Program-made: the position numbers and the translations under genes | In this document: piece by piece, positions 14,601-46,635 of the stretch | Numbering within the stretch: the stretch's first letter is position 1 | Layout: every line of letters begins with the position of its first letter | The notes under the pieces: model-generated | Seen by the model: only the letters and a program-made list of their open reading frames with translations | Databases searched by the model: none | What the model was told of the DNA's origin: nothing | Assembly: GCA_938017575.1 (NCBI GenBank) | Contig: CALIJC010000043.1 | Span: 1 to 49,892, forward strand | Direction: 5' to 3' | DNA from: an uncultured Patescibacteria group bacterium | GTDB taxonomy: Bacteria; Patescibacteriota; JACMRA01 | Length of the DNA: 49,892 bases

Positions 14601-15959
14601 GTTGAGTTAGGTGATGAGCTTCTTTATACAATCACAATAATTAATTCTGGTGATGGTGATGCAACAACTAATATTTTAGATGTTATTCACCCTGATACCA
14701 CATTGAATTTAGCTAGTTTGAATATTATAGGATGTGGTTCTACTTTGGTTGATAATTCCTCAGCTTCTCAAATTCAAATTGATGATTTGGTTATTGAAGT
14801 TGGAACAGATTGTGTTATTCAATTTTCAGTTAATATTAACTCTACATTAACTACTGGTATTACAATCTCAAATGAGGTGGTTATTGATAATCCAGATGAA
14901 GGAGGTAATGGTGCAAATCCAACCTCTGATGACCTAACTGTAAACATTGATTTGGGTCTTGATATTCAAAAAACTGTATATGAAGGGTTTAATGCTGGGG
15001 TAGATTGTTCTGCTGCGACAGATGAACTTATTATTGTTGATCCGCTTCAGCTTGATAGAGATATAACTTATTGTTTCACTATAACAAATATCAGCTCAGT
15101 TTACCTTGATCAGATTAGTATTAATGACGCTAATTTAGGAATAACCGAAGTAGATATGTTAATTGAATCAGGGTCTACTCCTTTGGCACCTGGAGACACT
15201 TTGGTTTACTACTATGAGGCGACTACAAATAAGAGCTTGGATAATTTTGTAGAAGTTTCTGCAACTGGAGTTGATAGTAATGGTGATGAAATTTCTGGTT
15301 GTGATTGTGGTGTAAATAATTCTGATGAAGCAAGTTTGGTTATTGTCTTTGACCCACCTTTTGGAATTAAAACTGGAACTTTTGAAGGTAATGATATAAT
15401 AAACTGGAATATGGTTTGGATTAATGGTTCAAATAATCAGGCAAATAATGTAATTATTACTGACGAAATTCCAGAAAATCTTACATTTAACGGTAATTTA
15501 ACTTGCGTTCCTGATGGTGCCTCAGTTGTAATTAGTTGTGATTTTGAATCTCCATCTGCTACTTTTCCAAGAGGGAGAGTGGTTGTGGTGGTAGATATAG
15601 CTCCTGATGGTCCAAGTGCCACAGATGAATTTAACTCGGAAAATGAAATTGTAATTAGCTTTGACAGTATTTTGGTCAATAATGAACCAGGAACTATTAT
15701 TACTAACCAGGCTGAGTTAACTTGGGATGCTGATGGTGATGGAGTAATTGATTTTACTGAATTGTCTGATGATCCTAGTGTAGCTGCCCCAGATGATGCA
15801 ACAACAGTTACAATTCCTGAGCTTAGCCTTCTTAGAACTGGTGGTGAGGTGGGTAGAAGGTTATTACCAATTGTGCTTTTAGCGTCTGGATTAACGATTT
15901 TAGTTGTATTATTAGTCAACAAACAAAAATATAATAACTCTATTTATTATAAGAAATAG
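5697..15959 (+). CDS. Giant acidic cell-surface protein (3420 aa): signal peptide, N-terminal head, about 17 tandem DUF11/isopeptide Ig-like repeats, LLRTGG + TM + basic tail
   Basis: Repeats of about 134 aa: DATPDL..K…PG…Y.I.I.N.G…D…CG…C…N. C-terminal hydrophobic helix followed by KQK…KK. Confidence 0.9.
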   Translation: MFLGKFKKAKILLLVIPILLSLVLNFPQSRFNFSIDSNAEGSKELMSNGGNRPRKYASSPVKVYVEVGETIYLGSNTGAINYSAPDGTAGNCTITNNLTNAAQENAGPLPNAGGYNPCTVTVAPGQEGVWYIDFASNSVQYWDVTVRDSGGTTIPGRAYMNRFVGNLAGFSRNLNSTFYVQTNDCYTYQVNMNGLDPYVFQFYSNNKGIRDGLGNPTYQSGNSNTGVHNPEAPDTATDITHKLFLTPPDPNMPATAPIADTEGETWLYCDPVIPSITNVEFFGIEGTQDQMGTNPLGGTISFDSNTPGLLSTVTLDLNNDGILGNGNDRTLTVTSVAGTNSIFWDGLDGLGVPVNAASGVSYNLPLNLAFNGGEVHFPIWDAEGSGGLQITRLNGPGAPDSTVYWDDTNIGIANFNDDGVASTPVGSEPNDGAGGNDPQLPSKSVAGGADSTVAGTHAWGKNGANYDGDGDTFGNRRLIDTWAFVEIPPVDQTLTFDIVETDLEIVSKTIDPDTIFEVGATTNFEIVVRNNGASDSVGAKILDSIPAEFTNLSLGSCTSTGGAVCVSDSFSGSDFEAVADIPSGDQVTYIINAEIGSLPANDMLMNTAYALRSADSTDPDATNPDSAPPVDPQAECDAAGASATCNNKKTAVLKPDPEIGIAKEISSFNVNADGTVTATYDIIVENTGNITLNDVNIDENLNNTFSGASYVVDSYSSPDFTVNPGFNGGGNTTLLDTGQSLDVGDSGLVQVTVTVTPATPAGNYDNSATAFASTPGGSGVKDASQNGNDVDPDSDPNEDPTDNNDPTPFPDFVNLNDSKKGVTDLNGGSTEPGDVLEYTIVITNQGNVTATGVDVGDIIDTDTVLDTSSVNLANCGTSFVDSSTITELNLSDVEILVGTDCEITFNVTINDPTDQGTLIENSARIRPTDQPGNGVVVDSPDLVVDGTPDLSTSTKSYTDLNGGDVEPDDEIEYTLTLINSGNALGTGIDVFDTIDPNTNTLANITLSNCGAGFTDSSTGTDLDITDLEVAVGTDCIITYSVLVNNPLPPGTILSNDVLIGGADEGGSGAFPATNTDPVSSTPDLSGASKSAVDLDGGTTQPGDRIEFTITIPNSGNSNATGVRIEDIVDSVFIVDQSSLSVVSGCGAGFDSSASSGNTIEIDDLEIDTTNPCIITFEVNIATPLDEGTLLDNVVTVFPADEGGNGSVPAAIPTLIVDATPDLSTSTKDVVDLNGGTVEPGDDLRYTINVINTGDGNATGVDLDDVIDINTENITNFSFTDCGGSFVNNSTSTLVDILSLEISTTDPCVITYDVSVKSPVDEGTVITNQVDIEPSDEGGVGGDPSSPDLTVDATPDLSSSTKDVVDLNGGTVEPGDVLQYDIRINNTGNGSASGVDVLDVIDTNTTLTTASIIITNCGTSFVDSSTTTQLDISDLEIAPSTTCRIIFSVVINTPVNEGILITNTATVSPADEGGSGSTPSSPDQTIDATPNLIVDKYHDKPTNIVTPGETITYTIEIENDGNGAGTTSFTDTISSFVGAPSNFVYTNCGGSESDSFADPTLSISNLVIQAGTICEVSYDVVADSPLNSGTVISNSADAAPASEGGNDPASESSDDISVDATPNLSTSTKTVSDLNGGTVEPGDTLEYTITMINTGDGLGTTGLTDEIDPSLTLDVASITENNCGAIFTNTSDSDTVSYTFLEVAVGTNCVIIFEAEVISPVNEGVLIGNTAVIPTTEEGGPGGSPSAPDVSVDATPDLSISKDENDADDIVTPGQVITYQVSLENNGNGQATGVDLTDTVVGNVSLVNNFTFTDCGTNYVDSSSGLNISITDLEIDPGSTCIVTYDITVATPNVEGDTINNSADAGPADEGGNDPAADSADELTTDVTPDLSTSTKVAVDTNGGTLEPGDTIDYTITIINTGDGTGTTNITDVIQAETDIDLASLSITGCGTGFTDNTDSTQVQIDDLEVEVGTNCVIEYTVTLDPILDEGTTISNEVIIDPSSEGGPGADPESSDIDVDATPQLNLSKNVSEVAPEPGETITYNIVIENTGNGTATGVDLDDTLTSTVVDSISNVIITNCGTAFADNSTPAAVGIDDLEIVVGTDCTISYDVLISNPANEGETINNLVDITPADEGGNDPDPVSADEAVVDATPDLAVTKDNQNPDNIVNPGETVTYLVEITNNGNGDATGVDLADTITSSIVDSVSNFVLTDCGTNFVNGSSGLGISIADLEIISGETCSIEYDILVSNPANEGEVINNSADVSPADEGGNDPDPVSADEAVVDATPDLAVTKDNQNPDNIVNPGETVTYLVEITNNGNGQATGVDLTDTITSSIVDSVSNFVLTDCGTNFVNGSAGLNISIADLEINPGETCSIEYDILVSNPANEGEVINNSADVSPADEGGNDPDPVSSEEVTNDATPDLSTSTKDVFDVNGGTLEPGDILEYTITIINTGNGAATTNITDAIQSDTSLDISSITVTNCGAGFTDNSDATQVQIDDLVIGVGTNCTVVYEVIVNSPLDEGTVISNNVLIDDPVEGGDGANPSATDVAVDATPQLDVTKTLSSEFPEPGETFSYNIEIENSGNGAATGVDLVDTLSSSVIDSVSNIALTNCGTSFVDSSLGLLIDLVDLEIQAGSTCEITYDVTVSNPANEGETINNSADVGPADEGGNDPDPVSADEAQVDATPDLVVDKSSSDSIVNPGDNLEYTITITNTGNGNATGVDLMDTVTSSVVDSVSNFSLTGCGSSFVNTSTGLNITISDLEINTVDDCVITYDALISNPANEGEAINNSADIGPADEGGNDPDPFSPDETNVDATPNLNVSKSPSTTTIQPGGAINYEIIINNDGDGDASGVDLIDTITSSVADSVSNISLSNCGTNFTDNSIGLGIDIENLEVVVGVDCVITYDVNISNPANEGETINNSADVGPADEGGIDPDPESGSEVSVDAVPDLSTSTKDVVDVNGGEVELGDELLYTITIINSGDGDATTNILDVIHPDTTLNLASLNIIGCGSTLVDNSSASQIQIDDLVIEVGTDCVIQFSVNINSTLTTGITISNEVVIDNPDEGGNGANPTSDDLTVNIDLGLDIQKTVYEGFNAGVDCSAATDELIIVDPLQLDRDITYCFTITNISSVYLDQISINDANLGITEVDMLIESGSTPLAPGDTLVYYYEATTNKSLDNFVEVSATGVDSNGDEISGCDCGVNNSDEASLVIVFDPPFGIKTGTFEGNDIINWNMVWINGSNNQANNVIITDEIPENLTFNGNLTCVPDGASVVISCDFESPSATFPRGRVVVVVDIAPDGPSATDEFNSENEIVISFDSILVNNEPGTIITNQAELTWDADGDGVIDFTELSDDPSVAAPDDATTVTIPELSLLRTGGEVGRRLLPIVLLASGLTILVVLLVNKQKYNNSIYYKK
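12147..12950 (+). repeat. Near-identical 402-bp tandem duplication inside the giant gene
   Basis: Two DATPDLAVTKDNQNPDNIVNPGE… units start at 12147 and 12549. Confidence 0.9.
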
Positions 15960-15982
15960 AGCATAGTGTTTAAATGAAATAC

Positions 15983-16010
15983 AATCCACTGTTTTAGTGG
16001 GTTTTATTTT
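15983..16010 (+). terminator. Probable terminator after giant protein 1
   Basis: ATCCACT-GTTTT-AGTGGGT hairpin followed by a T-rich tract. Confidence 0.6.
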
Positions 16011-16099
16011 TAAGTTAATGAAATTAGACTTCGTAAATAAATATGAAATTTCTTTGACATTCTTTCTTTGTTAGTATAAAATACTACTAACTTTTAATC

Positions 16100-18745
16100 A
16101 TGCTAGACGATCTTTATAATAACCAGCCCTCTAGGACACAGGAAACTACCCAAGATGGGGGAGGGAGTGTTTTACCTAGCTTTGATGTTGGTGGTATTTT
16201 TGGAGATCTTTTTACCTATTTGCTGGTTGGGTTAGGGTTAATTTTGGGATTTTGGTTATTGATTAGATATCTTAGAGGTTTGTTATATCGCAAAACTCGA
16301 TTAGCTAAATGGAAAGATACAGTTATTTTAGAAGTTACTAAACCGAAAGAAACCAAAGAACAGGCCCAAAAAGAAGGGGGAAATCAAAAAGATGATAAAG
16401 AAATGTTGGCTTTTGGAGAGCAGATTTTTGCAATTTTGTCAGAATACTCAGTTGGCCGTTGGAAAAACTATATTTTTGGAAATGAGAAATTTAGCTTTGA
16501 GATAGTAAATATTGATAAAGAAACTAGATTTTGGATTACTTGTTCTCGTGAAGTTTCTGAGGTTATTTCTAGACAAATTGTTGCTGTTTACCCAAAGGCA
16601 GCAATCTCAGAACTAAAAGAAACAGAGTTTTTCAAACCAGACACAGCAGCTTATGGCGTGGAATTAGATTTGTCTGTTCGATATGAATTACCATTTAGGA
16701 CATACAAAAACATCGACCAGGATCCTCTAAATATTTTGACTAACTCAATGACAGGTGTAGGGGAGGGAGATTCAATGGCTATTCAAATGGTTATTAGTCC
16801 AGTTGAAGATGGTTGGCAAACTAACCCAAGGGTTCTTGCTAGTAAAATTCAACAGGGTCAATCTCCTAAAGAAATTTTGTTTCCTTCGACTGATTTCTTA
16901 TCTGTAATTAGTAAATTTATTGGTGGGGTGTTTAAATTTTTTGGAAAAAATGATAGTAGTTCTAATTTGGATAACAAAGAGCGCAAAATTGATCTAACTG
17001 GTAAAGAGCAGGCTATTCAACTAACTCCACAGCAACAAGAGATTGTTAAAAAATTAGAAGAAAAATCTAGTCGCCAAGGTTTTGTATTTAATCTGAGATT
17101 GGTTGCTAGCAGTAAAACAGAAGCTAGAGCAAAACAACTTGTTGATGGCATGGTTCCAGCTTTTCAAGTATTTGATAACCGACCTTTTAATTATTTTAAA
17201 AAGAAAAAATCACGCAAACCAAAAGATGTTGTTTTCGATTATGCTATTAGGTCAATTGATAAAGATTTAAAAAAGATAATTAACGTTGAGGAGTTGAATT
17301 CGATCTGGCATTTACCGAATTATTTAACTCAAACCTCGAATATTAAATGGCTGGCTGCTCGAAAACCTGCTGTTCCTTTGTTGATTCCAGGGCCAGGTGA
17401 GGGGAATGTGTTTATTGGGACTGCTAAAAGTGGTGCGGTGGAAAAAGATGTATATATTAAAACTGAAGATAGGCTGAGACATTGTTATGCTTTGGGAGGT
17501 ACCGGAACTGGTAAATCTGAGCTGATGGGACATGTTATTTTGGAAGATATTAAAATGGGTAATGGTGTTTGTGTAGTAGACCCTCATGGTGAATTGATTG
17601 ATAATTTGATGTTAAGGATGCCAAAAGAGGCTCTGGATAGGGTGATTTTGTTTAGTCCTAGTATTACTGATTTTCCAATTGGAATGAATATGCTAGAGGT
17701 GGATGAAAGGAAGCCAACTGAAAAGACTTTGGTGATTGATATGATGTTCTCAATTTGGGATAAATTGTATGATCTAAAAGCGACCGGTGGTCCAATGTTC
17801 GAGCAGTACATGAAAAACTCATTGAGATTGATAATGAGCCACCCTGATAGTGGTTCTACGTTGATGGAGGTTAGTAAAGTATTAGCAGATGAAGATTTTA
17901 GAATGTTCAAATTAGCAATGTGTCAAGATGAACAGGTTGTTGATTTCTGGGAAAAAGAAGCTACGAAAGCTGGTGGAGATGCTAGTTTGGAAAACATGGT
18001 GCCGTACATTACTTCGAAATTGGCTCCTTTTGTAACTAACGATTTCCTAAGGCCGATTATTGGACAGCAAAAAAGCGCGATTAATTTCAGGCAGGCAATG
18101 GATAATAAAAAAATTGTTTTGTTGAAATTAGAAAAATCATTAATTGGTGAAGGTTCTAGTTATCTACTTGGAATGGTAATCATTGGTTCGATATTACGAG
18201 CTGGAATGGGAAGAGCTGATGGAGTTAGGGTGAATGAAGACGGTTCAACAGAAGAGATATTGGCATCTGAGAGAACTCCGTTTTTTGTGTATATTGATGA
18301 GATGCAGAATTTCTTGTTTGATGCTATTCCACAGGCTTTGGAGGAAATTCGAAAATACAAAGTTGGGTTTTATTTAGCTCACCAATTCGTAAAACAGGTT
18401 ATTAACAAAGGAGATGAGAGGATAAAAGATTCAATAATGAATAACTGTGCTAATAAATTTATATACCGCATCGGAGCTGATGATGCAAAATATTTAGAGC
18501 CGTTTTTCTCTCCTACGTTAATCGCTGAGGATTTAATGAACCCTGAGAAATATACAATCAATACGAGAATATTAGTTGATGGTCAGCAAACCACACCGTT
18601 TAATTTCTCACCAGAAACAACCTTTAGCAAGCCAATTGATAAATCTGTTCGTGATGAGATTATAGAAATGACCAAAACAAAATATGGTAAAGCTAGAGAA
18701 CTGGTAGAAAAGGAAATTAAAGAAAGAGGTAATTACATGTTTTAA
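16100..18745 (+). CDS. Membrane-anchored VirB4/TraD/HerA-like P-loop ATPase (type common in CPR genomes)
   Basis: N-terminal TM, Walker A GGTGTGKS, VVDPHGEL, Walker B YIDEMQNF, RKY…LAHQ motif. Confidence 0.88.
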   Translation: MLDDLYNNQPSRTQETTQDGGGSVLPSFDVGGIFGDLFTYLLVGLGLILGFWLLIRYLRGLLYRKTRLAKWKDTVILEVTKPKETKEQAQKEGGNQKDDKEMLAFGEQIFAILSEYSVGRWKNYIFGNEKFSFEIVNIDKETRFWITCSREVSEVISRQIVAVYPKAAISELKETEFFKPDTAAYGVELDLSVRYELPFRTYKNIDQDPLNILTNSMTGVGEGDSMAIQMVISPVEDGWQTNPRVLASKIQQGQSPKEILFPSTDFLSVISKFIGGVFKFFGKNDSSSNLDNKERKIDLTGKEQAIQLTPQQQEIVKKLEEKSSRQGFVFNLRLVASSKTEARAKQLVDGMVPAFQVFDNRPFNYFKKKKSRKPKDVVFDYAIRSIDKDLKKIINVEELNSIWHLPNYLTQTSNIKWLAARKPAVPLLIPGPGEGNVFIGTAKSGAVEKDVYIKTEDRLRHCYALGGTGTGKSELMGHVILEDIKMGNGVCVVDPHGELIDNLMLRMPKEALDRVILFSPSITDFPIGMNMLEVDERKPTEKTLVIDMMFSIWDKLYDLKATGGPMFEQYMKNSLRLIMSHPDSGSTLMEVSKVLADEDFRMFKLAMCQDEQVVDFWEKEATKAGGDASLENMVPYITSKLAPFVTNDFLRPIIGQQKSAINFRQAMDNKKIVLLKLEKSLIGEGSSYLLGMVIIGSILRAGMGRADGVRVNEDGSTEEILASERTPFFVYIDEMQNFLFDAIPQALEEIRKYKVGFYLAHQFVKQVINKGDERIKDSIMNNCANKFIYRIGADDAKYLEPFFSPTLIAEDLMNPEKYTINTRILVDGQQTTPFNFSPETTFSKPIDKSVRDEIIEMTKTKYGKARELVEKEIKERGNYMF

Positions 18746-18835
18746 ATATACCGAAGTTTATATTTGATTCCAAAATTTCTCAGAAAATATTGATAATTAT
18801 TGTATGTACAAACAAGCTAAAGGTGTTTGATGTGT

Positions 18836-19204: not shown

Positions 19205-19294
19205 CTATTTAGATTCAGCTCGATCTTGGTTGTATTGTCAATTTGTCTATTAATTATATAATTGTTATAGTTATTTTTGTAATAAATATGATTT

Positions 19295-19822: not shown

Positions 19823-19991
19823 ATATTAATGATATATCTAAATTAGGTAATATATTAATTTTAGTTAAGTATTTCCTGAATAATCTGGAGTTAACCAAGA
19901 AGTAGAATCAACTTTAGTTGGCTAGTAATTTGTCGGGTAGATTGCTATTATTTGACAAAACCTTAACTAGTAGATATCAGTTGTCTAGAAA

Positions 19992-20312: not shown

Positions 20313-20420
20313 TGCTGGTTTGTATTCTCTTTTGTGAGTGTAGGGTTTATCTACACTCTATTTTTGACAATTTTATATATTTTTGAGAGTTTTAGAAAGT
20401 TATTTTGAGGGTGTGTTAAC

Positions 20421-21065: not shown

Positions 21066-21090
21066 TAAATAGATCTAAGGAATTTGTATT

Positions 21091-24149: not shown

Positions 24150-24224
24150 TGGTCGGGGTGCAGGGAATTGAACCCTGTACCTCTTGCTCCCAAAGCAAGC
24201 ATGCTACCGATGCACCACACCCCG
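24150..24224 (-). tRNA. tRNA-Pro(TGG)
   Basis: Reverse complement: CGGGGTG…CTTGC-TT-TGG-GA-GCAAG…CAGGG-TTCAATT-CCCTG-CACCCCG-A-CCA. Confidence 0.96.
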
Positions 24225-24512: not shown

Positions 24513-27611
<3,099 letters not shown>

Positions 27612-27704: not shown

Positions 27705-27728
27705 ATAGTATTGATATAATTTTTTTTA

Positions 27729-36100: not shown

Positions 36101-39100
36101 CCAACAGAAGGGGCTGCTGATGAATTTGATGCAATCAGTGGAGCAAACGTAATTATTGTAACTTATGATATTCAAGCTGATGATGATATGGATTTGCAAG
36201 CAGATACATTTAACCATGCTGCAATCTTTAACTATGCTTCTAGAGATAATGGAACAGATTTTGGAGGTCCTGGAGATGGTGATATTATTTTTGATGATAC
36301 TGATATTTTTCCAACAAATGTTGTTGAGATTGATAAATCTGTGGTTAGCACAGAAGAGCCTAGTGTTGATAATTCTGAGGTTACAATTGGATCTTTGGTT
36401 CAATATGAAATTGAGTTAACAATTAATGAAGGTCTTACAAATGATGTAGTTATTAATGATAATTTGGGAGCTGGATTGGCTTTGGTTAGTATTGACTCAA
36501 TCACTCCATCAACAGATATTACAACAGATGTTGTAGGAGGTTTTGCTTCTGTTCAATCAGGGGTAAATGTAACTGGTTCTGGTCAAAATTTTGAGTTGGA
36601 TTTGGGTAACTTAACTAATCTAAATGATGATAACTCAATCGATGAAACAATCGTTATTGCTTACACAGCAGTTGTCCTAAATGATAGCTCGGTATCAACT
36701 GGAGATTCTGTCAATAATACAGCAACGGTAGAATGGTCAAATATTGATGAAGATGGAGTCCCTGAGATATTATCTGAGGTTGATGATGACAACAGTATTG
36801 AAGTGGTTGAACCAAATATTGAGGTTAACAAAAATATTGTAGAAACCAGTGGAGATGCGGGGGACACTATCACAATTGAATTAACAGTAGACCATTCAGG
36901 TAGCTCAACAGCGAATGGTTATAATTTGACAGTGAGTGATACTCTGCCAGCTGGAATGACTTATGCAGGTGGATTCACAACTGTTAATGGAATTGCTCCA
37001 ACAACTTCTGTTGAATCAGGTGGTGTCATTACATTGACATATGATTCACTCGGATTACTTGAAAATAGTACGGTTAGCTTTACGGTTACTCTTGATGGTA
37101 CCGTAACTCCTTTAGATGTTATTCAAAATGACGCTAGCTTAGAATATTCTTCTATGTCTGATGATGGTTCAACACCAGAATCGCCTTACAATACTGATTC
37201 AATTGAGCAAACTTATACAAATGACGGTCAAGATACACTCACTATTGATAGTTATAGTGTTGAAAAAACCATTGTTGATACCTCTATTAATGATGGCGAT
37301 GTTGATGGTAATGAGATTACTACAGGTAATAATGTAGTTGTGGGTGAGCAAATTCAATATCAAGTGGTTGTTGATATTCCTGAAGGAACTAGCCCAAGTG
37401 TTCAGTTAAGAGATTTTCTAGATGATGGGCTTGATTTAGTTTCAATTGATTCAATCACTGCCTCCCCTGGAGTATCAACAAGTATTGCAGGAGGATTTGC
37501 AGGGGTTGCTAGTAATGTTAGTGTAACTAATGCTAGTTTAGGAAGAAGAAGGATTTTACTAAACTTTGGTGAGGTTCAAAACACTAATAGTGATGCAGCT
37601 GTTGAACAAATTACCATTCTATATACGGTTATTGTAGAAAATGTTACAGCTATTTCTAATGGTGTAGCAAGGAACAATAGTGTGAGATGGAGATGGGACA
37701 CTCCAGTGCATCAGATTATTGATTCAGCACCAAATGTAATTGTGCAAGAGCCTAATCTAGTGGCAACTAAATCAAGTGATATTGATAATGTTAATGCTGG
37801 GGATACTGTGGAATATGAAATTGAGATAACTAATAACGGGACTTCTCCAGCATTGGATGTTGTTGTAAATGATGTTGTCCCAGGAGTTTTCAATTATGTT
37901 GCACTTTCAGCAAATATTGTCACTGCACACACAGCAACTACTGACGATAGTGGTGCACCAAGCTTGGTATTTAATATTGACCAAATTGATGTAAATGAAA
38001 CTGTTACAATTACTTATGAAATGATTGTCACAAACACTGCTGTTGCAGGTAACACATATACAAATGATGTTGATATCGAATGGACTTCATTAACAGGTGT
38101 AAGTGGTGATGAACGAACTGGTGATGACACAGATCCAGGGGGTACTGAAAACGATTACTCAACAACTACCAGTGATGATGTTGTTATGGATGGTGTTGTT
38201 TCTAGCAAATCAATTATCGAAACAAGTGAACCAGATACTGTTACTGGAGTTGATTCAATCGAGAGGGTAGTAATTGGAGAAGTTGTGCGATATCGACTTG
38301 TCAAAGAAATTTCTGAATCAAGTTTACCTAACTTTGAAGTAGTGGATTATCTTCCAAATGGGATGCAGTACTTAGATGATGGTACAACAACAATTGCTTT
38401 GATTTCAAACGCAGGCGGCACTACCAACTTGACCTCTGACTTGATTCCTGTAGGCGGGGAAGTTCTTGGTAACTCAGTAATTACTCCTACTTTTGTAATG
38501 CCAGCAGGATCAATAATAAATGATACTAATGGTGGAAACCCATTTGCTAATGGTGATGATGTTAGATTCGATTTAGGAAATGTTATAAATGGAGACGAGG
38601 ATGATGGAGATACTGAGTATATTGTGATTGAATTAAATGCGATTGTTCTAAATGATATTACTAATCAAGGAGGGACTAATTTAGAAAACAGCTTTGAATT
38701 GTTTGTTGATGATGGTTCTGGTCCAAATAGTTTAGGTACTTCACCAGTTGATGTAAATAATACTGTAACTGTAGTTGAACCTGATATTTCAATTAACAAA
38801 ACTATTACAACAGTACCAAATGATGCAGGAGATCCTGTAGTTTATGAAATTCGTGTTGAAAATGGAACAGGTGCGAATATAAGTACTGCTTATGATCTTA
38901 ATATTCTTGATTTATTAAATAGTAACTTAGTTTTGCAAAGTGTTAGTGTTTCTGGACCTACTAATACAGATAATTCTAACATTCTTGGAAACCTTGTTGA
39001 TGTTGATATTGCTGAACTAGCACCAGGAGAAGTTGTGATTGTCACTGTAAACGCAGTTGTAGCTAGTGGAGCTCAGAATGGAGACACTATTGGAAACGAA

Positions 39101-42100
39101 GGTACATATACATATGATTCAATAAGCGATGATGCTCAAGCAGCCACAAATCCAACAGATTCAAGTATCCCAGGGGGAGAAGGAGATGATGATGGAGCTA
39201 GAAACGGTCAGGATGGTGCTGGAGCTGGACTAAATAACTATGCTGGCTCTTCAAATGTAGATTTGATGATTGGTGTTCCGGAAATAGAGAAAATTAGCCC
39301 TTCTCAAACTGAGTATGTAATTGGTGAAGAGGTGACTTATGAAATCCTGGTTACTTTACCTGAGGGTGATACAGTTGATATGAATATTGTTGATGGTATT
39401 CCTGATGGGCTCGATTATGTATCTCATAACATTTATGAACTTGCTGCTGACTCTGCCAATCTTACGTCAGATTATAATGGAACTCTTGCAGCACCTACAG
39501 TTACTGGTGGGTCTGGAACTGGAGATGATATTAGTTTCGATTTTGGAACAACAAATACTGTTGATGATAACGATCCAGATAACAATAGTTTTGTTATTGA
39601 AGTTACAGCTCAAGTTGTGAACCAAGGTAGCAACCAGAATGGAACTGCTTTGATTAACTCAGCATCGATAGAATGGACTAACCCAGAAACTTCTGCGACA
39701 GATTCAATTAGTGATGACGCTGATGCAATCACAGTTGCCGAACCAGTATTAGATATAGTTAAATCTGTTGATGATGATACAGTACAATTTGGTCAAACTG
39801 TTGAATACACGATTGATATAACTCATAATAGTGCTTCTACTGCTGATGCATATGATATTCTTGTTACTGATATAATCTCAGGTGATTTGGATTATGTAAT
39901 TGGTTCGAGTACTTTGCCAGCAGGCTGGAGCATTGATGAATTAAGTAACCCAACTATAACCTTTACAGGTGACTTGCCAAATGATGGTAGTACTGTCCAA
40001 ATTAGATTTGAAGCAACAGCAAAAGCTCCAGGAAGTTATCTAAAAGGAACTGTAATTGGAAATACTGCTGATATAAATTGGACTTCTCTTGATGGAGCTG
40101 TAACAGGTGAAAGAAGTGGAAGCGGTGGTGTTGATGATTATACGAATTCTGGTAGTGTTGATATTACAATCACTGCACCTGATTTAACTGTAGATATTAA
40201 CGATAGTATTGGAACAACTAATCCAGGAGACACAAATATTTATGATGTAGAAATTATTAATATTGGAAACAATCAAGCTGATAATTCAACTGCAACTATT
40301 ACTATTCCTGCCAATGCAACTTTTGACCCAGGCTCTTCTAGTGCTGGTTGGGTATGTGTTCCAGATAACTCAAGTGGTTCAGTGTGTACTAACAACGTTG
40401 GAACAATTAATCCATCTGGAATTGTAAATATTGACTTTGCTTTGACTATAGATAGTGTTCTTCCTGCTGGAGCTAATGACATTACAGTTGATGTTTCAGT
40501 GGCTGATGATGGTGCTAATGGTCCAGAATGTATTTCAACTAATAATACTAGTTCAGATACAGATGTAATAGATGCTGCTCCAGATCTTGGAATTACAAAA
40601 GATGATGGAGTAACTACAGTTGCACCAGGAGGGCAAACAACTTATACACTGACTATTACTAACACAGGTACCCAAAATGCTACAGGAGTTGTTGTATCAG
40701 ACACACTTCCAACTGCTGGAGTTTCTTACAATACTTCTAGTGATTCAGGTACTGAATCTGCTGGTATTGTTACTTGGCCATCATTTAACTTAAATGTTGG
40801 TGACACGGTCATAAGATCTGTTACGATTGATATCGATGGACCTATTGATAGTGGAATAGCAACAATAGAAAATATTGCAAATGTAACAGATGATGGTAGT
40901 AATGGAACTGATTTGAATCCAGCAAATAATTCTGACAATGATATTGATGATGTTGATGCTGCTCCTGATTTGGATGTATCTAAGTCGATTAGCTCTCCAG
41001 TTGTAGTAACCAATGGTTCAGTGGTTAATTATGCAATTGATTATGGAAATATCGGTGATCAAGATGCAACAGGTGTTGTGCTAACTGAATCAGTACCAAT
41101 TGGGTCAACGTTTGATTCTGGCAATGCTCTAAATACTGGCTGGACATGTGTAGCAAACACCGAAGGGTCAACATGCACCTTTACCATTGGTGATTTAGAT
41201 GTGGGCGATTCTGGTTCAACTAACTTTGTAGTTATCGTTGATGATCCAATTGATTCTGAACAAGAAAATTTGGATAACACTGTATCTATTAGTGATGATG
41301 GTACAAATGGTTTAGACGGTGATCCGAGTAATAATTCATCTATGGACTCAACTCCGATAGACGCTACTCCTGATTTAAGAACAACTAAGACAGACAACCA
41401 AACTGTAGCTACTGCCGGACAGTCGATAACTTACATTATTGAAGTATTTAACGATGGAAACCAAGATGTTGTCAGTGCTCAGTTAACTGATACTTTGCCA
41501 ACTGGTGTAACATTTGTTTCTGCAAGTGGAGGGGGAACAGAAGCTTTAGGAGTTATCACATGGCCAGCTTATGATTTAGATGCTGGGACTAGTAAGATAT
41601 TTACTGTAACCGTTACTCTTGATAATCCTGTAGCTGCTGGAATGGATTCAATTACTAACTCTGCAACTTCAAGTTTTGCCCCTAATAGTGGTGATACTGA
41701 TCCAACAAATAACAACACAGCTGAAGATACTGATACAATTAACGCAGCTCCTGATTTGGTTGTTACAAAAACTGATAATGGATTAGATTTGGTCCCAGGA
41801 TCTTCATTCCCGTATGATATTAACTACACAAATGTAGGAACCCAAGATGCAACTGGTGTCGTTATTACAGATACAATTCCTACAAGTACAGTATTTGACC
41901 CTGCTAACTCAACTCCAGGATGGTCATGTGCTCCTGATAACAACCCAGGTTCAATATGTACTATCACAATTGGAAACTTAGATAGTGGTGATTCTGGTTC
42001 AGTAGTATTTGCTGTAATTGTAGATAATCCATTAGGCTCTGGTATTGATAGTACGAATAATACTGTTTCTATTGCTGATGATGGTGCTAATGGTCCTGAC

Positions 42101-44683
42101 GAAAACCCAAGCGATAACTCTTATGATGAGCAAACAACTGTGGATGCACTCCCTGAGCTTTACTTGCAAAAAGACGATGGTGGAATCACTGTTGAAGCAG
42201 GAGATCCAATCGTGTATACTTTGACATATGGAAATAGTGGAAACCAGACATCAACTGGTAATGTACTTACAGAAACTGTACCAATTGGAACAACAATTGA
42301 TTTATCTGCACCAGAAAATGCAGGCTGGTCATGTACAGGAACTACAGCTGGATCTACATGTACATATTTAGTTGGAGTTATTAATTCTAATGAAGAATTT
42401 AATACAACTTTTGCTGTAATCGTGGATAATCCTGTGGCGAGTGGAATTAATTCAATTGAAAACTCAGCTAGGATTGATGATGATGGAGCAAATGGGACTG
42501 AAACTAATACTGTTAATAATGATGATGGCGCTTCAACTGAACTTAATGCAGCTCCTGATTTGAATATTGTGAAGGATGATGGATTAACAAATATTAACCC
42601 TGGAGACTCTTACACTTATACTTTGACAATCACCAATATTGGTTCTCAAGATGCTACTGGAGTACAAATAACCGATATCCTTCCTCCTGAACTTACTTAT
42701 GTAGGATCAAGCGATAGTGGAAGTGAGAGTGGTGGAACAGTTACTTGGCCAGTTGTTGACGTTGCTGTAGGTGACATAATTGTAAGAACTGTCGATGTAC
42801 TATTTGATGTCCCAGTTAACCAAGTACCTGCTGGATTAGAGACTCTCACTAATACTGCCACTGCATTTGATGATGGAGCAAATGGTCCAGATCTTGATGG
42901 TTCTAACAACATTGCTGAAGATATTGATGATGTGAATGGTGATGTTGATTTAACTGTAACTATTGATGATGGAAACACAACAGTTAGTACTGGGGATTCC
43001 GTTGTATATAAGGTAACAATTGATAACCTTGGTTCACAGTTTGCATCTAATACGATGGCTACAATTACTATACCAGCTGGTGTTAGTTTTGATTCTGGTA
43101 CTTCAACTCCTGGATGGACATGTACTCCAGATGGTAATGCAGGATCAATTTGTACAATCAATGTAGGAACAGTAACAACAATTGCAGAAACATGTGTCTT
43201 CTTTGGGGTTATTGTTGATGACCCAAGTAATGTTGATGAGATTGATATCAGTGTTGATGTAAATGATGATGGAACAAGTGGACCAGAATTAGATGATACT
43301 AATAATGATGATAATGATGTTGATAATATTATTGGTAATCCAAATCTAACTGTAACCAAGACAGATAATCAGAATATTGCTGAACCAGGAGAAACTCTAA
43401 TTTATGAAGTCGAAGTAACAAATAATGGTGATATAATCCTAACTGGAATTGAGGTGATTGATACCCTTCCACAATATACAACTTTCGTAAGTAGTGATAA
43501 TGGAGGAGTCTTTGATTCAGGACTAGGACAAGTAAATTGGTCAGTTCTTTCATTAATTCCAAACGAGAGCATAATTCTAACTGTAGAAGTAGTTGTTGAT
43601 GATACAGTGCCTTCTGGTGTCGAAGATATTACTAATAATGTATCTGGTACCGAAGATGGAACCCATGGTGTTGAAACAGATACTAGTGATAATGAGTTTG
43701 AGGATATTGATACACTTGAGGCTCAACCAGAGTTGGATGTTGTAATTGAAGCAACACAAGATTTGGCTTATCCTGGAGAAGAAGTTGAATTTTTGATTAC
43801 TCATACTAACCTTGGAAATCAAGATGCTACTGGAGTAGAAGTTACCTTTACGATCCCTGAAAATACTACTGGTCAACCAACTGCACCTGGAGTTGGGGCT
43901 TTAGAAGGAGGAGTAGCTCCACTTGGATTAAATGTTGGATGGGTTTGTCCTGATTTAAATCCAGGTACAACTTGCACATATTTAATTGGAAATGTTGCTG
44001 CAGATGAAGATTGTATAATTCCTTTCTTTGTTATTGTAGATGAAGATGTTGCCCCTGGCGATACAATTATTGGTGAAACAACAGTGTATGATGATGGTTT
44101 AAATGGAGCTGAAATTACTCTTGTTAATAATGATTCTAACGATAATGTGATTATTCCATTTACTGATTTGCAGGTTACTAAAACAACTTCAAGTAATCAA
44201 CCTCAATTTGGAGATGACATTGTTTATACAATCTCATACTTAAATAATGGACCAGATGATGCAACTGATGTTGTTATAAGAGATATCTTGCCATCTGAAC
44301 TAGCATATGTATTTAGCACTAATAATGGTGCATTAATCGATCCGATTATTACTAATAATCCTGATGGTACAACGACATTAGATTTCTCTATTGGAGATTT
44401 AGCAAATGGTGAGGTTGGTGAGATTCAACTGATAACAACACTTAACATAAATGTTGGTCAAGAAATCACTAACAATGTTGAAATAAGTGGTAGAGAAGCT
44501 GAGATTACAAATGTAAATAATCAGAGCCTTGCACCAATAACTACTATTGAAAATCCAGGATTGACTATTGATGGTTTGATTAGAACTGGTAAAAAAGGAT
44601 CTAAGATGAGAATGGGAATGATTCTAATTACTCTAGGACTTATGATGGGATTCTCAATTGAGAAACTCAACAAGAAAAGTTAA
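33161..44683 (+). CDS. Giant acidic cell-surface protein (3840 aa) with isopeptide-forming fimbrial D2-like and DUF11 repeats; LIRTG + TM + basic tail
   Basis: Repeats K…G..V.Y.I…PEG…D.L…N and PDL..TK.D…PG…YT; GWxC…CT disulfide loops; long N-terminal leader. Confidence 0.9.
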   Translation: MPSKLRKPKKLTARKTFGEKRNQIYQKTKNLWLINIISIYISTIFNVFSNLKYFILGLFINKSLSFMMIGLLVFSSFANFSFYTPNINVQAAADPQVSLSVPDTLIGDTFDVVASFDNADSTDTGFGPYIDLIIPFNGTDGINGDTTSGSPTEADGIISVNSATYLGTPLTTIELVFPDDTGLGAGVQNTGCVDHPFAVDIAGVPLEVCGNTGDILVVTQLPFGSFVPNQPNADVTFNVTMSQLADINQPLEFQALGGFMFGNDEFVNPNSDPSIVASSYTSASTFPQVVIFEKEVILPEGESHTGPNNPFQYVLTATLAVGQTVDNFQFVDELPNTVVYQSLILADTTAGCTETSPVPPTTGTASGSILTIDCGTIGLGDNPVTATYEVYVSDVDGDGGSVIDHDSCDDTPTVNSATSVGDWNPIDPRDVGPTIDNSFVTPVETETVTNKCIQIQKSNSIDIDNGNAGYTPGDIIEYTLEFQISDFFILDDVDIQDIVNDGVHILEPGHPNFAPPTLAINSGVTTTSGPIDSANYSITNNWTGAVPVPPSPDGTTILDVDVSGELATRSLNTALFGGCVSPNPAQPIDCESASPTYNTGATTGTITYLAEIQDQYTDIAGDPSVDHADVITNNVTIEGEVIDNSDRATPTGSVEEDTSSSSFEIESGTFAKNILAINNADPSGITSLSPGDAVTYQLTYTLPSSDTENFMLEDYLPKPVFDVSTLDTFITPNGLGLEQATTTPFSMPPIGQIWLGPIDTFYGVSNIDPVITQDIIGNSFLIDYGTFDDPTNTSSIVDVVFTVEVSDAPFGDGLQLTNQALATEQNTSGSPVTSTQINQITLDEPELEITKGAIDSDSLIETYSPDPAYGGGVTFDPVGTSTACGHFSGTISSDVLDSDPIISDITDVDGSDLIRFATVIENVGSNGAYDIYVRDILPAGFSVPAGGDNLCVTRGDGTVLSTSNIGGGSGMFDQGIEIIDPTEGAADEFDAISGANVIIVTYDIQADDDMDLQADTFNHAAIFNYASRDNGTDFGGPGDGDIIFDDTDIFPTNVVEIDKSVVSTEEPSVDNSEVTIGSLVQYEIELTINEGLTNDVVINDNLGAGLALVSIDSITPSTDITTDVVGGFASVQSGVNVTGSGQNFELDLGNLTNLNDDNSIDETIVIAYTAVVLNDSSVSTGDSVNNTATVEWSNIDEDGVPEILSEVDDDNSIEVVEPNIEVNKNIVETSGDAGDTITIELTVDHSGSSTANGYNLTVSDTLPAGMTYAGGFTTVNGIAPTTSVESGGVITLTYDSLGLLENSTVSFTVTLDGTVTPLDVIQNDASLEYSSMSDDGSTPESPYNTDSIEQTYTNDGQDTLTIDSYSVEKTIVDTSINDGDVDGNEITTGNNVVVGEQIQYQVVVDIPEGTSPSVQLRDFLDDGLDLVSIDSITASPGVSTSIAGGFAGVASNVSVTNASLGRRRILLNFGEVQNTNSDAAVEQITILYTVIVENVTAISNGVARNNSVRWRWDTPVHQIIDSAPNVIVQEPNLVATKSSDIDNVNAGDTVEYEIEITNNGTSPALDVVVNDVVPGVFNYVALSANIVTAHTATTDDSGAPSLVFNIDQIDVNETVTITYEMIVTNTAVAGNTYTNDVDIEWTSLTGVSGDERTGDDTDPGGTENDYSTTTSDDVVMDGVVSSKSIIETSEPDTVTGVDSIERVVIGEVVRYRLVKEISESSLPNFEVVDYLPNGMQYLDDGTTTIALISNAGGTTNLTSDLIPVGGEVLGNSVITPTFVMPAGSIINDTNGGNPFANGDDVRFDLGNVINGDEDDGDTEYIVIELNAIVLNDITNQGGTNLENSFELFVDDGSGPNSLGTSPVDVNNTVTVVEPDISINKTITTVPNDAGDPVVYEIRVENGTGANISTAYDLNILDLLNSNLVLQSVSVSGPTNTDNSNILGNLVDVDIAELAPGEVVIVTVNAVVASGAQNGDTIGNEGTYTYDSISDDAQAATNPTDSSIPGGEGDDDGARNGQDGAGAGLNNYAGSSNVDLMIGVPEIEKISPSQTEYVIGEEVTYEILVTLPEGDTVDMNIVDGIPDGLDYVSHNIYELAADSANLTSDYNGTLAAPTVTGGSGTGDDISFDFGTTNTVDDNDPDNNSFVIEVTAQVVNQGSNQNGTALINSASIEWTNPETSATDSISDDADAITVAEPVLDIVKSVDDDTVQFGQTVEYTIDITHNSASTADAYDILVTDIISGDLDYVIGSSTLPAGWSIDELSNPTITFTGDLPNDGSTVQIRFEATAKAPGSYLKGTVIGNTADINWTSLDGAVTGERSGSGGVDDYTNSGSVDITITAPDLTVDINDSIGTTNPGDTNIYDVEIINIGNNQADNSTATITIPANATFDPGSSSAGWVCVPDNSSGSVCTNNVGTINPSGIVNIDFALTIDSVLPAGANDITVDVSVADDGANGPECISTNNTSSDTDVIDAAPDLGITKDDGVTTVAPGGQTTYTLTITNTGTQNATGVVVSDTLPTAGVSYNTSSDSGTESAGIVTWPSFNLNVGDTVIRSVTIDIDGPIDSGIATIENIANVTDDGSNGTDLNPANNSDNDIDDVDAAPDLDVSKSISSPVVVTNGSVVNYAIDYGNIGDQDATGVVLTESVPIGSTFDSGNALNTGWTCVANTEGSTCTFTIGDLDVGDSGSTNFVVIVDDPIDSEQENLDNTVSISDDGTNGLDGDPSNNSSMDSTPIDATPDLRTTKTDNQTVATAGQSITYIIEVFNDGNQDVVSAQLTDTLPTGVTFVSASGGGTEALGVITWPAYDLDAGTSKIFTVTVTLDNPVAAGMDSITNSATSSFAPNSGDTDPTNNNTAEDTDTINAAPDLVVTKTDNGLDLVPGSSFPYDINYTNVGTQDATGVVITDTIPTSTVFDPANSTPGWSCAPDNNPGSICTITIGNLDSGDSGSVVFAVIVDNPLGSGIDSTNNTVSIADDGANGPDENPSDNSYDEQTTVDALPELYLQKDDGGITVEAGDPIVYTLTYGNSGNQTSTGNVLTETVPIGTTIDLSAPENAGWSCTGTTAGSTCTYLVGVINSNEEFNTTFAVIVDNPVASGINSIENSARIDDDGANGTETNTVNNDDGASTELNAAPDLNIVKDDGLTNINPGDSYTYTLTITNIGSQDATGVQITDILPPELTYVGSSDSGSESGGTVTWPVVDVAVGDIIVRTVDVLFDVPVNQVPAGLETLTNTATAFDDGANGPDLDGSNNIAEDIDDVNGDVDLTVTIDDGNTTVSTGDSVVYKVTIDNLGSQFASNTMATITIPAGVSFDSGTSTPGWTCTPDGNAGSICTINVGTVTTIAETCVFFGVIVDDPSNVDEIDISVDVNDDGTSGPELDDTNNDDNDVDNIIGNPNLTVTKTDNQNIAEPGETLIYEVEVTNNGDIILTGIEVIDTLPQYTTFVSSDNGGVFDSGLGQVNWSVLSLIPNESIILTVEVVVDDTVPSGVEDITNNVSGTEDGTHGVETDTSDNEFEDIDTLEAQPELDVVIEATQDLAYPGEEVEFLITHTNLGNQDATGVEVTFTIPENTTGQPTAPGVGALEGGVAPLGLNVGWVCPDLNPGTTCTYLIGNVAADEDCIIPFFVIVDEDVAPGDTIIGETTVYDDGLNGAEITLVNNDSNDNVIIPFTDLQVTKTTSSNQPQFGDDIVYTISYLNNGPDDATDVVIRDILPSELAYVFSTNNGALIDPIITNNPDGTTTLDFSIGDLANGEVGEIQLITTLNINVGQEITNNVEISGREAEITNVNNQSLAPITTIENPGLTIDGLIRTGKKGSKMRMGMILITLGLMMGFSIEKLNKKS

Positions 44684-44702
44684 TTCTATATAACGCAAAA
44701 CA

Positions 44703-44735
44703 AAAAATTCTCACCCCAAATACGGGTGAGTTTTT
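44703..44735. terminator. Bidirectional terminator between the convergent surface-protein genes
   Basis: A-tract, CTCACCC…GGGTGAG stem, T-tract. Confidence 0.8.
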
Positions 44736-44757
44736 GTAAAACTTATTTACTATTTGA

Positions 44758-46635
44758 CTAATAACCTCCTGTTCTAACAAGACCTGGAATAGTTGAGCTT
44801 ATTGGTGATTCAGTCAAAGTAATAAATTCATATGCACCCAGATCACACCCATTTAATTGCGGTCTTGATACAGATCTTTGATCATCAACCAAACAAGTAC
44901 TCGAATCACCAGCGTCAACAGCAGGAGAGTTTTCTGTCAAAGCGATTGTGTTTAAACCATTAGAAGCACTGTTTGTTCCAAATGTACCAAATATTGGGTT
45001 GGTATTCTGAAGTGAAAAACCATTGCAAGTCCCATCTGATGATAGGTTCAAACTTCCAGAAATTATTGCATCAATGGCAGGATCAAAAGGTACACAATCC
45101 CCACCAATGTTATTTGCTACCAAGTTATTTTCAAATGTAAGTGAACCAGTGCCAGGGAAGAAATACACAGATCCATCATCAGAAAAATTATTTGCTATTG
45201 TTGTGTTATTGATATCAATTGTTCCATTTCCTTGATCACTGCATGCAGGGGCTGTAACAGCTGTTTCATCACTTCCACCACAAATAAATGTTACACCAGA
45301 CCCTCTGGAGGATTCATTACCTACAATTGTTGTGTTGAGTATCTCTGTTCTAATAGATTGAACTTCACCAGCTGCGTATTCTTCTAATATTCCTGCATTT
45401 ATTGCATTATTTCTGCTATATATACCTCCACCATAAATTGAAGCAATATTGTTTTCTATTAATGACTTATTAATTTGCATATGCCCCCCTATAGTTGCTA
45501 TTCCCCCACCATTTTGAGCTGAATTATTGTAAATATGTGAGTCATTAACATACATACTAAAGGCAACATACTGTCTTTCTTCATGCCAAATACCTCCACC
45601 AAGTGTTACTGCTTGGTTATTGTGGATTGTAGAATTATTAAGATAAACTGAACTTTCTCCTGTACCTGCATATTGAACACCTCCGCCAAAAGATGTTGAG
45701 ATATTACCATGGATGTTGACGTTATCAATGATAAGGTCTGCTTCAGATTCTTTGTAGATTGTGATTCCTGCACCTAAACCAGTATTGTTGTCATTAATTG
45801 TGGAATTAGAAATATTCCCATATACGTTAGTCAAACTAAGAGCGCCAGAATTTGAAACTAAAAGTCCGTCAGTTACATTATTGTCGAATATAGTTAGATT
45901 ATCTATATTCACTTCAGTTGTAAAAGCTGTAAAAATTGCTCCATATTCTGCATTTGCTATATTCGTAGAGGTGTTATCGTTAATTTGCACATTTTGAACT
46001 TCTAATTGACTGTTAGAACCGCTATCAGTTCCAAAAGTTATGGCGCCTCCTTCGGAATTTGTAATAGTGTTGTTTTGAACTATTAGATCAGTAAAAACTG
46101 TTTGTCGCATACTATTACTATTTTCATCATATTTTCTTATAGCAGCTCCACCGTGAGGAGAGTGATCGTTTGCATCAACTAGTCCGTTTTGAATAGTTAG
46201 TCCTGTCATTGTTAAATCTTGATCAGCAGTTGCAATGGTGCTATCATAGAAATCAAACACTCTATCAAGTCCTCCGCCGTCAATGATAGTTTGATCAGAC
46301 CCAGCTCCGATAATGCTAATAGATTCTGAGATATCAAAATCTCCAGTTTGATTTGCATTCTCTAAATTACCAGGTATTGTAGTGGTGTAAGTGCCAGCTG
46401 GGATGTTGATTGTGTCTGCACCGGCCAATGCATTTGATTCGTCTATTGCTGCTCTGAGCGTACAAATTCCGTTACCTGTACCTGTTTCACATACTCCATC
46501 TCCTGGATTAATATCAACTGCATCAATAGTTGAGTTGACTAATAAAGACGCTGTATTTACTTGAATATTGGATAGAGAGGGTGTGAACAGAATTATTGAG
46601 CAAAAAAAAGTTGATAGAATAGATTTTTTGCACAT
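44758..46635 (-). CDS. Secreted CSLREA-domain / beta-helix / choice-of-anchor-Q protein ending in LVRTGGY
   Basis: VNST.D…PGDGVC…CTLRAAI; repeated N.A..GGG[IV]; SPAVDAG…DQR..RPQ…CDLGAYE. Confidence 0.88.
   Translation of the reverse strand: MCKKSILSTFFCSIILFTPSLSNIQVNTASLLVNSTIDAVDINPGDGVCETGTGNGICTLRAAIDESNALAGADTINIPAGTYTTTIPGNLENANQTGDFDISESISIIGAGSDQTIIDGGGLDRVFDFYDSTIATADQDLTMTGLTIQNGLVDANDHSPHGGAAIRKYDENSNSMRQTVFTDLIVQNNTITNSEGGAITFGTDSGSNSQLEVQNVQINDNTSTNIANAEYGAIFTAFTTEVNIDNLTIFDNNVTDGLLVSNSGALSLTNVYGNISNSTINDNNTGLGAGITIYKESEADLIIDNVNIHGNISTSFGGGVQYAGTGESSVYLNNSTIHNNQAVTLGGGIWHEERQYVAFSMYVNDSHIYNNSAQNGGGIATIGGHMQINKSLIENNIASIYGGGIYSRNNAINAGILEEYAAGEVQSIRTEILNTTIVGNESSRGSGVTFICGGSDETAVTAPACSDQGNGTIDINNTTIANNFSDDGSVYFFPGTGSLTFENNLVANNIGGDCVPFDPAIDAIISGSLNLSSDGTCNGFSLQNTNPIFGTFGTNSASNGLNTIALTENSPAVDAGDSSTCLVDDQRSVSRPQLNGCDLGAYEFITLTESPISSTIPGLVRTGGY

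Follow-up and report, generated by a model that had tools for sequence, protein, structure and literature searches.

Three large surface proteins encoded on one contig of an uncultured Patescibacteria bacterium end in closely similar short motifs, which raises the question of what these motifs are for and which enzyme reads them. The contig, referred to here as the window, is a stretch of 49,892 nucleotides (CALIJC010000043.1, C43 in our numbering) with a G+C content of about 33%, and belongs to a 1.04-Mb genome that is assembled in 78 contigs and is 78% complete. In the original prediction, made from the window alone, the endings LLRTGG, LIRTG and LVRTGG were taken as marks of a sortase-like system with a lineage-specific transpeptidase of its own. 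All three endings are confirmed in the translations at the predicted coordinates, and the window is, as had also been said, free of sortase genes. Elsewhere in the genome we find two sortase homologs, both with a serine in the place of the catalytic cysteine of sortases. Judging from these sequences, we consider it fairly probable that a serine-nucleophile sortase variant acts on an arginine-containing signal in this organism.

The C-terminal signal and its carriers

Proteins 1 and 2 of the window are giants composed of DUF11, DUF7933, DUF7927, DUF7619, DUF7507 and CARDB domains in Pfam, with DUF11 matching 14 stretches in each (E=3.4e-111 and E=1.1e-151, respectively). Protein 1 starts with a signal-peptide-like segment and ends in PELSLLRTGGEVGRRLLPIVLLASGLTILVVLLVNKQKYNNSIYYKK, while protein 2 ends in IDGLIRTGKKGSKMRMGMILITLGLMMGFSIEKLNKKS. 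Protein 3 ends in STIPGLVRTGGY and has no Pfam match at E<=0.01; a choice-of-anchor Q domain (NCBIfam NF041518, E=1.3e-16) lies just before its motif, and its homologs carry CSLREA or beta-helix names. The original observation that the passenger domains differ, DUF11-type arrays in proteins 1 and 2 versus a choice-of-anchor Q/CSLREA beta-helix type in protein 3, therefore holds. A hydrophobic helix and a basic tail follow the motif in both giants, as claimed; protein 3, for which no such claim had been made, stops one residue past the GG. Protein 2 has K instead of G after its motif, the sole K at that position among the 26 signals described below.

The same ending is found throughout the genome. 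In a set of 984 non-overlapping open reading frames (ORFs) of at least 80 amino acids (292,216 residues, 84% of the DNA), 26 of the 33 occurrences of [LIVMF]xRTG lie in the last 60 residues, where 20% would be expected (P=8e-13). The same is true of all 22 occurrences of RTGG (P=5e-16) and of 25 of the 28 occurrences of R[TS]GG, and the C-terminal enrichment that a proteome scan had been proposed to look for is thus present. The C-terminal matches numbered 32, six of which were judged to be non-signals and dropped: two helicase-like IGRTGR, an enzyme-like IIRTGGD, a membrane protein, and two others without a hydrophobic segment. One additional signal, TVRSGG, was found at contig ends. Among the 26 signals, 20, including those of proteins 1 and 2, have the tripartite layout of LPXTG signals (motif, hydrophobic segment, basic tail), and six, including that of protein 3, are short and lack it. 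Where the N-terminus is complete, most carriers have a signal-peptide-like segment there. This pattern indicates that [L/T]-x-R-[T/S]-G-G is a genuine, genome-wide C-terminal signal, and that it probably serves as the general cell-surface sorting signal of about 26 exported proteins.

The signal occurs in two forms. In the first, a polar spacer of 5-10 residues separates L-x-R-T-G-G from the helix; in the second, the helix comes immediately after T-P-R-[T/S]-G-G. An alignment of 20 tails of the genome, that of protein 1 among them, shows the R and the first G of the motif to be invariant. Counted over 29 rows, three of which are regarded as chance, the residues are L21, T5, I2 and Q1 at position 1; I10, P6, L4, V4, S2, F2 and D1 at position 2; R29 at position 3; T24 and S5 at position 4; G29 at position 5; and G24 at position 6. 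The original definition of the motif stands as far as the fixed Arg at X and the dispensable Pro are concerned. Its L-[LIV] is not invariant, and the core is better given as R-[T/S]-G-G, with the T-P-R-[T/S]-G-G form present in the same genome. A known signal model might already have captured these tails, but the matches are few and weak: of the 20 tails with a helix, four match TIGR01167 (best E=0.0016) and three match PF00746 (best E=0.03), those of window proteins 1 and 2 not among them.

The six short signals end 1-4 residues past xxRTGG without a hydrophobic segment (F, Y, F, FSL, LDL and EFLN) and terminate signal-peptide-bearing ORFs of 219-1175 amino acids. The closest full-length homolog of protein 3 (P0204, 627 amino acids, 38% identity) ends in LIRTGGF, and RTGG[F/Y] followed by a stop closes ORFs of 310-505 amino acids in the related genomes G012 (three) and G027 (two). 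A further match of this kind in G003, in a frame of 7 amino acids, was discarded as spurious. Since the ortholog and the relatives share the same ending, we reject an assembly artefact, such as a read-through stop or a frameshift, as the general cause, and the helix-less ending appears to be a conserved form rather than an accident of assembly. In-frame translation downstream of these stops revealed no consistent hydrophobic segment, and a decayed helix is possible after C55:11339. Our guess is that helix-less carriers are captured at the translocon or ligated to other surface proteins.

Other endings were seen among the homologs of protein 3. A different helix-less tag, [Y/F]-L-P-[L/I/M]-[I/V]-x-[K/R]-(P), for example YLPIIVKP, ends 39 of 119 homologs (within P0205-P0322); it stands directly after the choice-of-anchor Q domain, several of its carriers are named from Chloroflexota-type bacteria, and it may be a separate C-terminal sorting tag. 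Another homolog, P0306, ends in LPKTGGRP without a helix. Several carriers of the R-[T/S]-G-G signal, with or without a helix, contain an element D-G-x-[I/V]-x-D-P-x-G-L 10-40 residues upstream of the motif (sequences L003-L020 and others; examples are GVDGVIVDPIGL and, in G012, NGRIVDPVGL), which may be another anchor-adjacent domain. A 3708-residue protein on contig C6 ends in ILPQTGDCYPLP, with a canonical-looking LPQTG, no Arg and no helix; this could be chance or another type of signal.

SR1 and Gracilibacteria are lineages that read TGA as glycine. The genetic code was tested because the sortase homologs described below bear SR1 or Gracilibacteria source names. Under table 11, 70 of the 775 ORFs of at least 150 amino acids end in TGA, and recoding was rejected in favor of table 11. 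The in-frame TGAs of long TGA-open frames cluster at frame ends or in spurious-looking frames with many TGAs, and all signal-bearing ORFs terminate in TAA or TAG. The genome appears to use the standard code.

Serine-bearing sortase homologs and their relatives

The sortase family PF04203 has exactly two matches in the genome (38.7 and 31.7 bits, cut-off 26.6), which lie on contigs C39 and C18. Both proteins have an N-terminal hydrophobic helix and neither contains a single cysteine, the TLxTC of sortases being replaced by VVTLQTS and VVTLQGS. On contig C39, a gene for a 330-residue multi-pass membrane protein (L001 1397-2389, minus strand) is convergent with the sortase 1 gene. The search for sortases, exosortases and rhombosortases suggested in the original prediction thus returned two PF04203 genes. 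It returned no exosortase (PF09721, no match in the 78%-complete genome), and the single rhomboid-family gene seems generic, with rhomboid genes also found in 14 of 14 control genomes.

Serine at this position is widespread among homologs of the two proteins. Most of a set of 56 homologs read T-L-Q-[T/G/A]-S and have no Cys, and most of 143 further homolog representatives have Ser, with a minority reading TLQTC. A search of the PDB with the single sequence of sortase 1 gave no matches and a profile was needed; a profile of 26 homologs aligns with E=2.7e-4 to a solved structure, that of sortase C1 from Actinomyces oris (2xwg). In this alignment vtLQgS falls on VTLITC, with the Ser on the catalytic Cys, GHsS falls on GHTG, and kRwLvrGE falls on HRLLVTGE. 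All 26 homolog rows share Ser300, His229 and Arg315. The AlphaFold2 model has a mean predicted local distance difference test (pLDDT) score of 78, and from residue 140 onward most ten-residue blocks exceed 90 (range 82-98). Foldseek with this model found 128 matches in the PDB at E<=0.001; those ranked highest are all sortases (C, A and D), with E-values down to 8e-11 and a probability of 1.00. The model has the sortase fold, and the alignment shows the catalytic His (GHS) and Arg kept at their positions. Of the named NCBIfam sortase classes A-F, only class F matches, and its scores of 12.2 and 17.2 bits fall far below the cut-off of 166. By homology and predicted fold these enzymes belong to the sortase superfamily, atypical in their nucleophile and outside the named classes. 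The candidates for the transpeptidase envisaged in the original prediction are unusual, yet they are not a new kind of protein but divergent members of PF04203 with Ser for the catalytic Cys.

The class to which the organism belongs comprises 27 species genomes in the collection used, and a sortase-family match was found in 21 of the 21 genomes in a first set of relatives (numbered G000 upward). Among 13 relatives from its family or order, 12 carry Ser forms together with Arg signals, with G004 the only one to carry just TLQTC; the sortases of G010, a genome 93% complete, are two Ser forms. Cys forms reading SLMTC, TLMTC, TLVTC and TLQTC are found in the seven genomes that belong to other families. 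G024 contains both TLQTC and TLQTS genes, and Ser forms are also found in G021, G022, G030 and G033. Our own signal profile has matches in 14 of the 21 genomes; among 27 loci read with it, 23 have xxR[T/S]G[G/A], one has TVPTGG (G011), and three, from other families, have helices only. With TIGR01167, which is neutral with respect to Arg, a motif is present in 15 of 20 matches in G000, G001, G002, G007 and G012, and Arg in 13 of these 15, the exceptions being LTKTGD (G007) and EPKTGE (a frame of 59 amino acids in G012). In the Cys-bearing genomes, read with TIGR01167 plus one profile match, Arg is found in none of seven signals: IVKTGG, LAQTGI, VTETGG and LVTTGS in G004 (0/4), LPSTGG in G024, and LPTTGG and VPATGI in G014. 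The idea of one sortase for each signal form (L-x-R-T-G-G with a spacer versus T-P-R-[T/S]-G-G with an immediate helix) found no support, as G002 (88% complete) has one sortase match and both forms.

More distant homologs include sortases of about 190 amino acids that contain LLTLQTSYP and lack the long N-terminal region. A scan with one genome per species found 333 relatives, and the best 80 loci, which come from Doudnabacteria and other Patescibacteria, were fetched. In 74 of the 80 loci the sortase reads T[LVI]QTS[YW]P, one reads TLMTCTP, and five were unmatched by the search expression. At 46 loci a gene beside the short sortase, on the same strand, carries a motif-helix-tail signal, and this signal is LPRTG in 42 of them, LPVTG in two, and LPKTG and LPTTG in one each; the carriers reach about 1550 amino acids. 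Sortases of the Cys type TLMTCxP are found in 121 of 401 sampled genomes of the phylum, and 30 of their loci (3 kb each) yielded four signals on the same strand (LPATG, LPSTG, LPKTG and LPETG), all of which lack Arg. The TLQTS[Y/W]P pattern was found in 9 of 151 sampled genomes of the phylum, about six of them genuine by eye, in a search for TCN-coded Ser.

In a tree of 67 catalytic domains the long and the short groups split with a support of 100, and Ser and Cys interchange at least twice, or four times by parsimony. A TLQTC clade (support 98) lies among the Ser forms of the long group, although its placement is weakly supported. Since the long and short groups separate in the tree and both go with Arg signals, the pattern of Ser with Arg recurs in two separate branches. 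Contrary to the original proposal, the system is not specific to one lineage, with shorter Ser-type sortases standing beside LPRTG substrates in other Patescibacteria. Ser and Arg are strongly associated where the genes for enzyme and substrate lie side by side, and also in the class of the window organism; the association is not universal.

The pairing of enzyme and signal was also modeled as a complex of the sortase catalytic domain with the signal tail, both given as alignments. This prediction lends weak support, with a median score of 0.34 against 0.03 for the best control, and at least 77% of contacts are common to the runs, with a partner pLDDT of at least 49. Of 80 solved complexes, 58 reach the mark used, as do 2 of 110 mismatched pairs, and those that reach it at scores of 0.60 or below include only 7 of the 80 solved complexes and both mismatches; the pass may stem from likeness to solved sortase-peptide complexes.

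Competing explanations and known systems

If a serine sortase is at work, the signal-bearing proteins would be exported by Sec, and the C-terminal helix of the 20 tailed proteins would hold them at the membrane. There a membrane-anchored enzyme of the sortase family, for which the C39 and C18 proteins are the candidates, would recognize the motif. Its Ser would attack the Thr-Gly bond to form an acyl-ester intermediate, to be resolved by an amine that belongs to the cell wall or to a different surface protein, as in the Ser-dependent DD-transpeptidases. The fixed Arg before Thr would be a determinant of specificity, or one that assists catalysis, going with Ser-type enzymes. A fuller version of this account can be put forward tentatively. 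In it, natural Ser-nucleophile sortases of Patescibacteria would have arisen at least twice from Cys sortases, or have reverted, and would read an Arg signal, LPRTG, that is relaxed here to [L/T]xR[T/S]GG, with the Arg aiding recognition or catalysis; helix-less xxRTGG[F/Y]-COOH proteins would form a second class of substrates, ligated to other surface proteins, for example, without being held at the membrane.

A number of observations count against a serine sortase that reads an Arg signal. Sortase A loses nearly all activity when its Cys is engineered to Ser, so it cannot be taken for granted that a Ser nucleophile works. A third sortase, of the Cys type, could be unassembled in this incomplete genome. 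Neither sortase gene adjoins a substrate gene in the assembly, and six signals are without the helix that, in the classical mechanism, is required for retention at the membrane. Our own signal profile (A2) is biased toward Arg, and the related genomes are kin rather than independent samples. The coupling itself has exceptions. Four of the 46 signals adjacent to short Ser sortases have no Arg, G007, whose signal LTKTGD was listed above, is a Ser-type relative, and the G011 genome with TVPTGG has only Ser forms at the sortase loci that were fetched, which are all but one of its matches. A TLQTS sortase is present in five genomes from two other families, in three of them alongside TLMTC, and the TIGR01167 signals of these five (APKTGS, LPNTGA, LPVTG three times, LPNNGP and GARTGA) contain Arg in one of seven cases. 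In the three genomes with both enzymes (G048, G142 and G161) no signal gene was found within 4 kb of either sortase, and their genome-wide TIGR01167 signals are LPVTG, LPNTG and LPNNG, not LPRTG.

In one rival account the Cys-less homologs are inactive or only bind their targets, and the processing of xxRTGG falls to a canonical Cys sortase that the assembly lacks. The genome is incomplete enough to allow for this, TLQTC forms do exist within the same family (G004, and G024 with both forms), and the inactivity of the sortase A mutants fits as well. We nevertheless think it rather improbable: in 12 of the 13 relatives from its family or order, the 93%-complete G010 among them, the fetched sortase loci are Ser only, although the same profile readily detects the Cys forms of seven other families (E=1e-13 to 1e-26). 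Invariance of Ser, His and Arg across 26 homologs would be unexpected for a decayed enzyme, and a short Ser-sortase gene lies directly beside the gene for an LPRTG substrate in 42 loci. The Ser enzymes might, on the other hand, be hydrolases that cut between T and G of R-T-G-G to shed or mature proteins and not transpeptidases that attach them to the wall. A Ser acyl-ester is hydrolyzed more easily than aminolyzed unless water is excluded, and the six substrates with 1-4 residues past the GG, the cutting of which would serve no anchoring-release logic, also speak for hydrolysis. This reading seems unlikely to us, as 20 substrates keep the complete retention module of helix and basic tail that is typical of wall-anchored proteins, the giant DUF11 repeat proteins resemble attached surface fibrils, and penicillin-binding proteins are an established case of transpeptidation that depends on Ser.

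An enzyme other than a sortase, such as a rhomboid protease or an exosortase-like protein, might read the signal while the sortase homologs do something else. The one rhomboid-family gene would be a candidate, and rhombosortase systems are reported to use Gly-rich C-terminal signals (PMC3237569). This is very improbable given the presence of rhomboid genes in every control genome, the lack of an exosortase match, the exact LPXTG register of the signal (x-x-X-T-G), and the physical linkage, elsewhere in the Patescibacteria, between genes for sortases and for LPRTG substrates. Chance, or simple paralogy of C-termini, might be suspected for motifs this short, but it deserves practically no credence: it is refuted by the placement of every RTGG of the ORF set near a C-terminus, and the passenger domains of the carriers are unrelated and the signal is conserved in relatives.

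Compared with the sortase/LPXTG system (classes A-F; PF04203; TIGR01167 and PF00746), the proposed serine sortases share the fold and family, the His and Arg positions and the N-terminal membrane helix, and their signals share the register and layout, with a five-residue motif ending in T-G, a hydrophobic segment and a basic tail. They differ in that the Cys nucleophile of known sortases is an invariant Ser here, in Cys-free proteins that no class model fits, and in that the signal has Arg fixed at X, an optional Pro, a nearly fixed GG and a helix-less form. Class E sortases use LAXTG signals, and other variants of motif position 2 exist as well; Pro is dispensable there as it is here. The enzymes of those variants keep the Cys, and X is not fixed as Arg in their signals. 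NCBIfam lists an LAVTG surface-protein family (NF058582). The short TLQTS[Y/W]P sortases have in common with the enzymes described here the Ser for Cys, a Gln two residues before the Ser and an Arg at X of the signal, but differ in their separate branch, their small size, the retained Pro and single G of LPRTG, and the adjacency of enzyme and substrate genes. The rhombosortase/GlyGly-CTERM and exosortase/PEP-CTERM systems are similar in that many proteins with a motif-helix-basic-tail signal depend on one dedicated enzyme, and rhombosortase also uses a Ser nucleophile. The folds of these two enzymes are unrelated and intramembrane, and the genome yielded no exosortase and a lone generic rhomboid.

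To our knowledge, every sortase studied so far has a catalytic cysteine, and this residue is treated as a defining and indispensable feature. If the serine-sortase reading is true, a natural Ser-for-Cys lineage with its own sorting motif would change the definition of sortases, and it would explain why LPXTG annotation misses surface proteins in many Patescibacteria. In this genome of 1 Mb it would concern about 26 proteins, fibrils of 3400-3800 amino acids among them. Such a system would also give a handle on how episymbiotic cells build their host-attachment surface, and could supply thiol-free ligases of orthogonal specificity for protein engineering. For enzymology it raises the question of how a Ser-His-Arg sortase transpeptidates and whether the Arg of the substrate takes part.

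Sortases are mentioned as common in the Candidate Phyla Radiation (CPR) in four papers (PMC6851277, PMC4736985, PMC6744442 and PMC13278184), the accessible portions of which contain no mention of the motif or of a Ser form. In the accessible literature on sortases of CPR, Gracilibacteria or Patescibacteria and on Ser sortases, supplements excluded, we found no description of the Ser form or of an Arg signal. Accessible texts that mention LPRTG are unrelated or deal with engineered sortase A ligation and hydrogels, not with a natural sorting signal, and the strings LIRTG, LVRTG, LLRTG and LXRTG led to unrelated papers only, again within the text that could be searched.

Coordinates and neighboring genes

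Table 1. Locations of the carriers, signals and candidate sortases. Positions without a contig name refer to the window.
Feature	Location	Strand	Description	Basis
Giant surface protein 1	5697-15959	+	3420 amino acids	ORF list, translation, Pfam
Sorting motif of protein 1	15828-15845	+	L-L-R-T-G-G	Translation; aligned with 19 other tails of the genome
Tail of protein 1	15846-15956	+	Polar spacer EVGRR, hydrophobic segment LLPIVLLASGLTILVVLLV, basic tail NKQKYNNSIYYKK	Translation
Giant surface protein 2	33161-44683	+	3840 amino acids, DUF11-rich repeats	ORF list, Pfam
Sorting motif of protein 2	44576-44590	+	L-I-R-T-G	Translation
Tail of protein 2	44591-44680	+	Spacer KKGSKMR, hydrophobic segment MGMILITLGLMMGF, basic tail SIEKLNKKS	Translation
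Surface protein 3	44758-46635	-	625 amino acids, signal-peptide-like N-terminus	ORF list
Helix-less signal of protein 3	44761-44781 (LVRTGG 44764-44781)	-	L-V-R-T-G-G-Y, then directly TAG	Translation
Helix-less signals of the genome	C55:11315-11368; C72:15399-15443; C28:3179-3229; C62:13539-13589; C55:14255-14299; window 44761-44805			
Candidate sortase 1	C39:82-1056		324 amino acids, VVTLQTS or VVTLQGS motif	PF04203
Candidate sortase 2	C18:1559-2515		318 amino acids, VVTLQTS or VVTLQGS motif	PF04203

The window holds further genes of note. A heliorhodopsin gene (280 amino acids, PF18761, E=5.6e-81) is located at 30254-31096 on the plus strand. A complete 23S ribosomal RNA gene stands alone at 24513-27611 on the plus strand, and its match of 3099 bases to a model of 2925 positions may hold an insertion. 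Rfam finds no 16S or 5S ribosomal RNA in the 49.9-kb window, and one transfer RNA at 24153-24224, on the strand opposite to the 23S gene. Starting 140 bases downstream of giant surface protein 1, an ORF at 16100-18745 on the plus strand encodes a protein of 881 amino acids with weak matches to coupling-ATPase domains of the HerA, TraG and VirD4 types.

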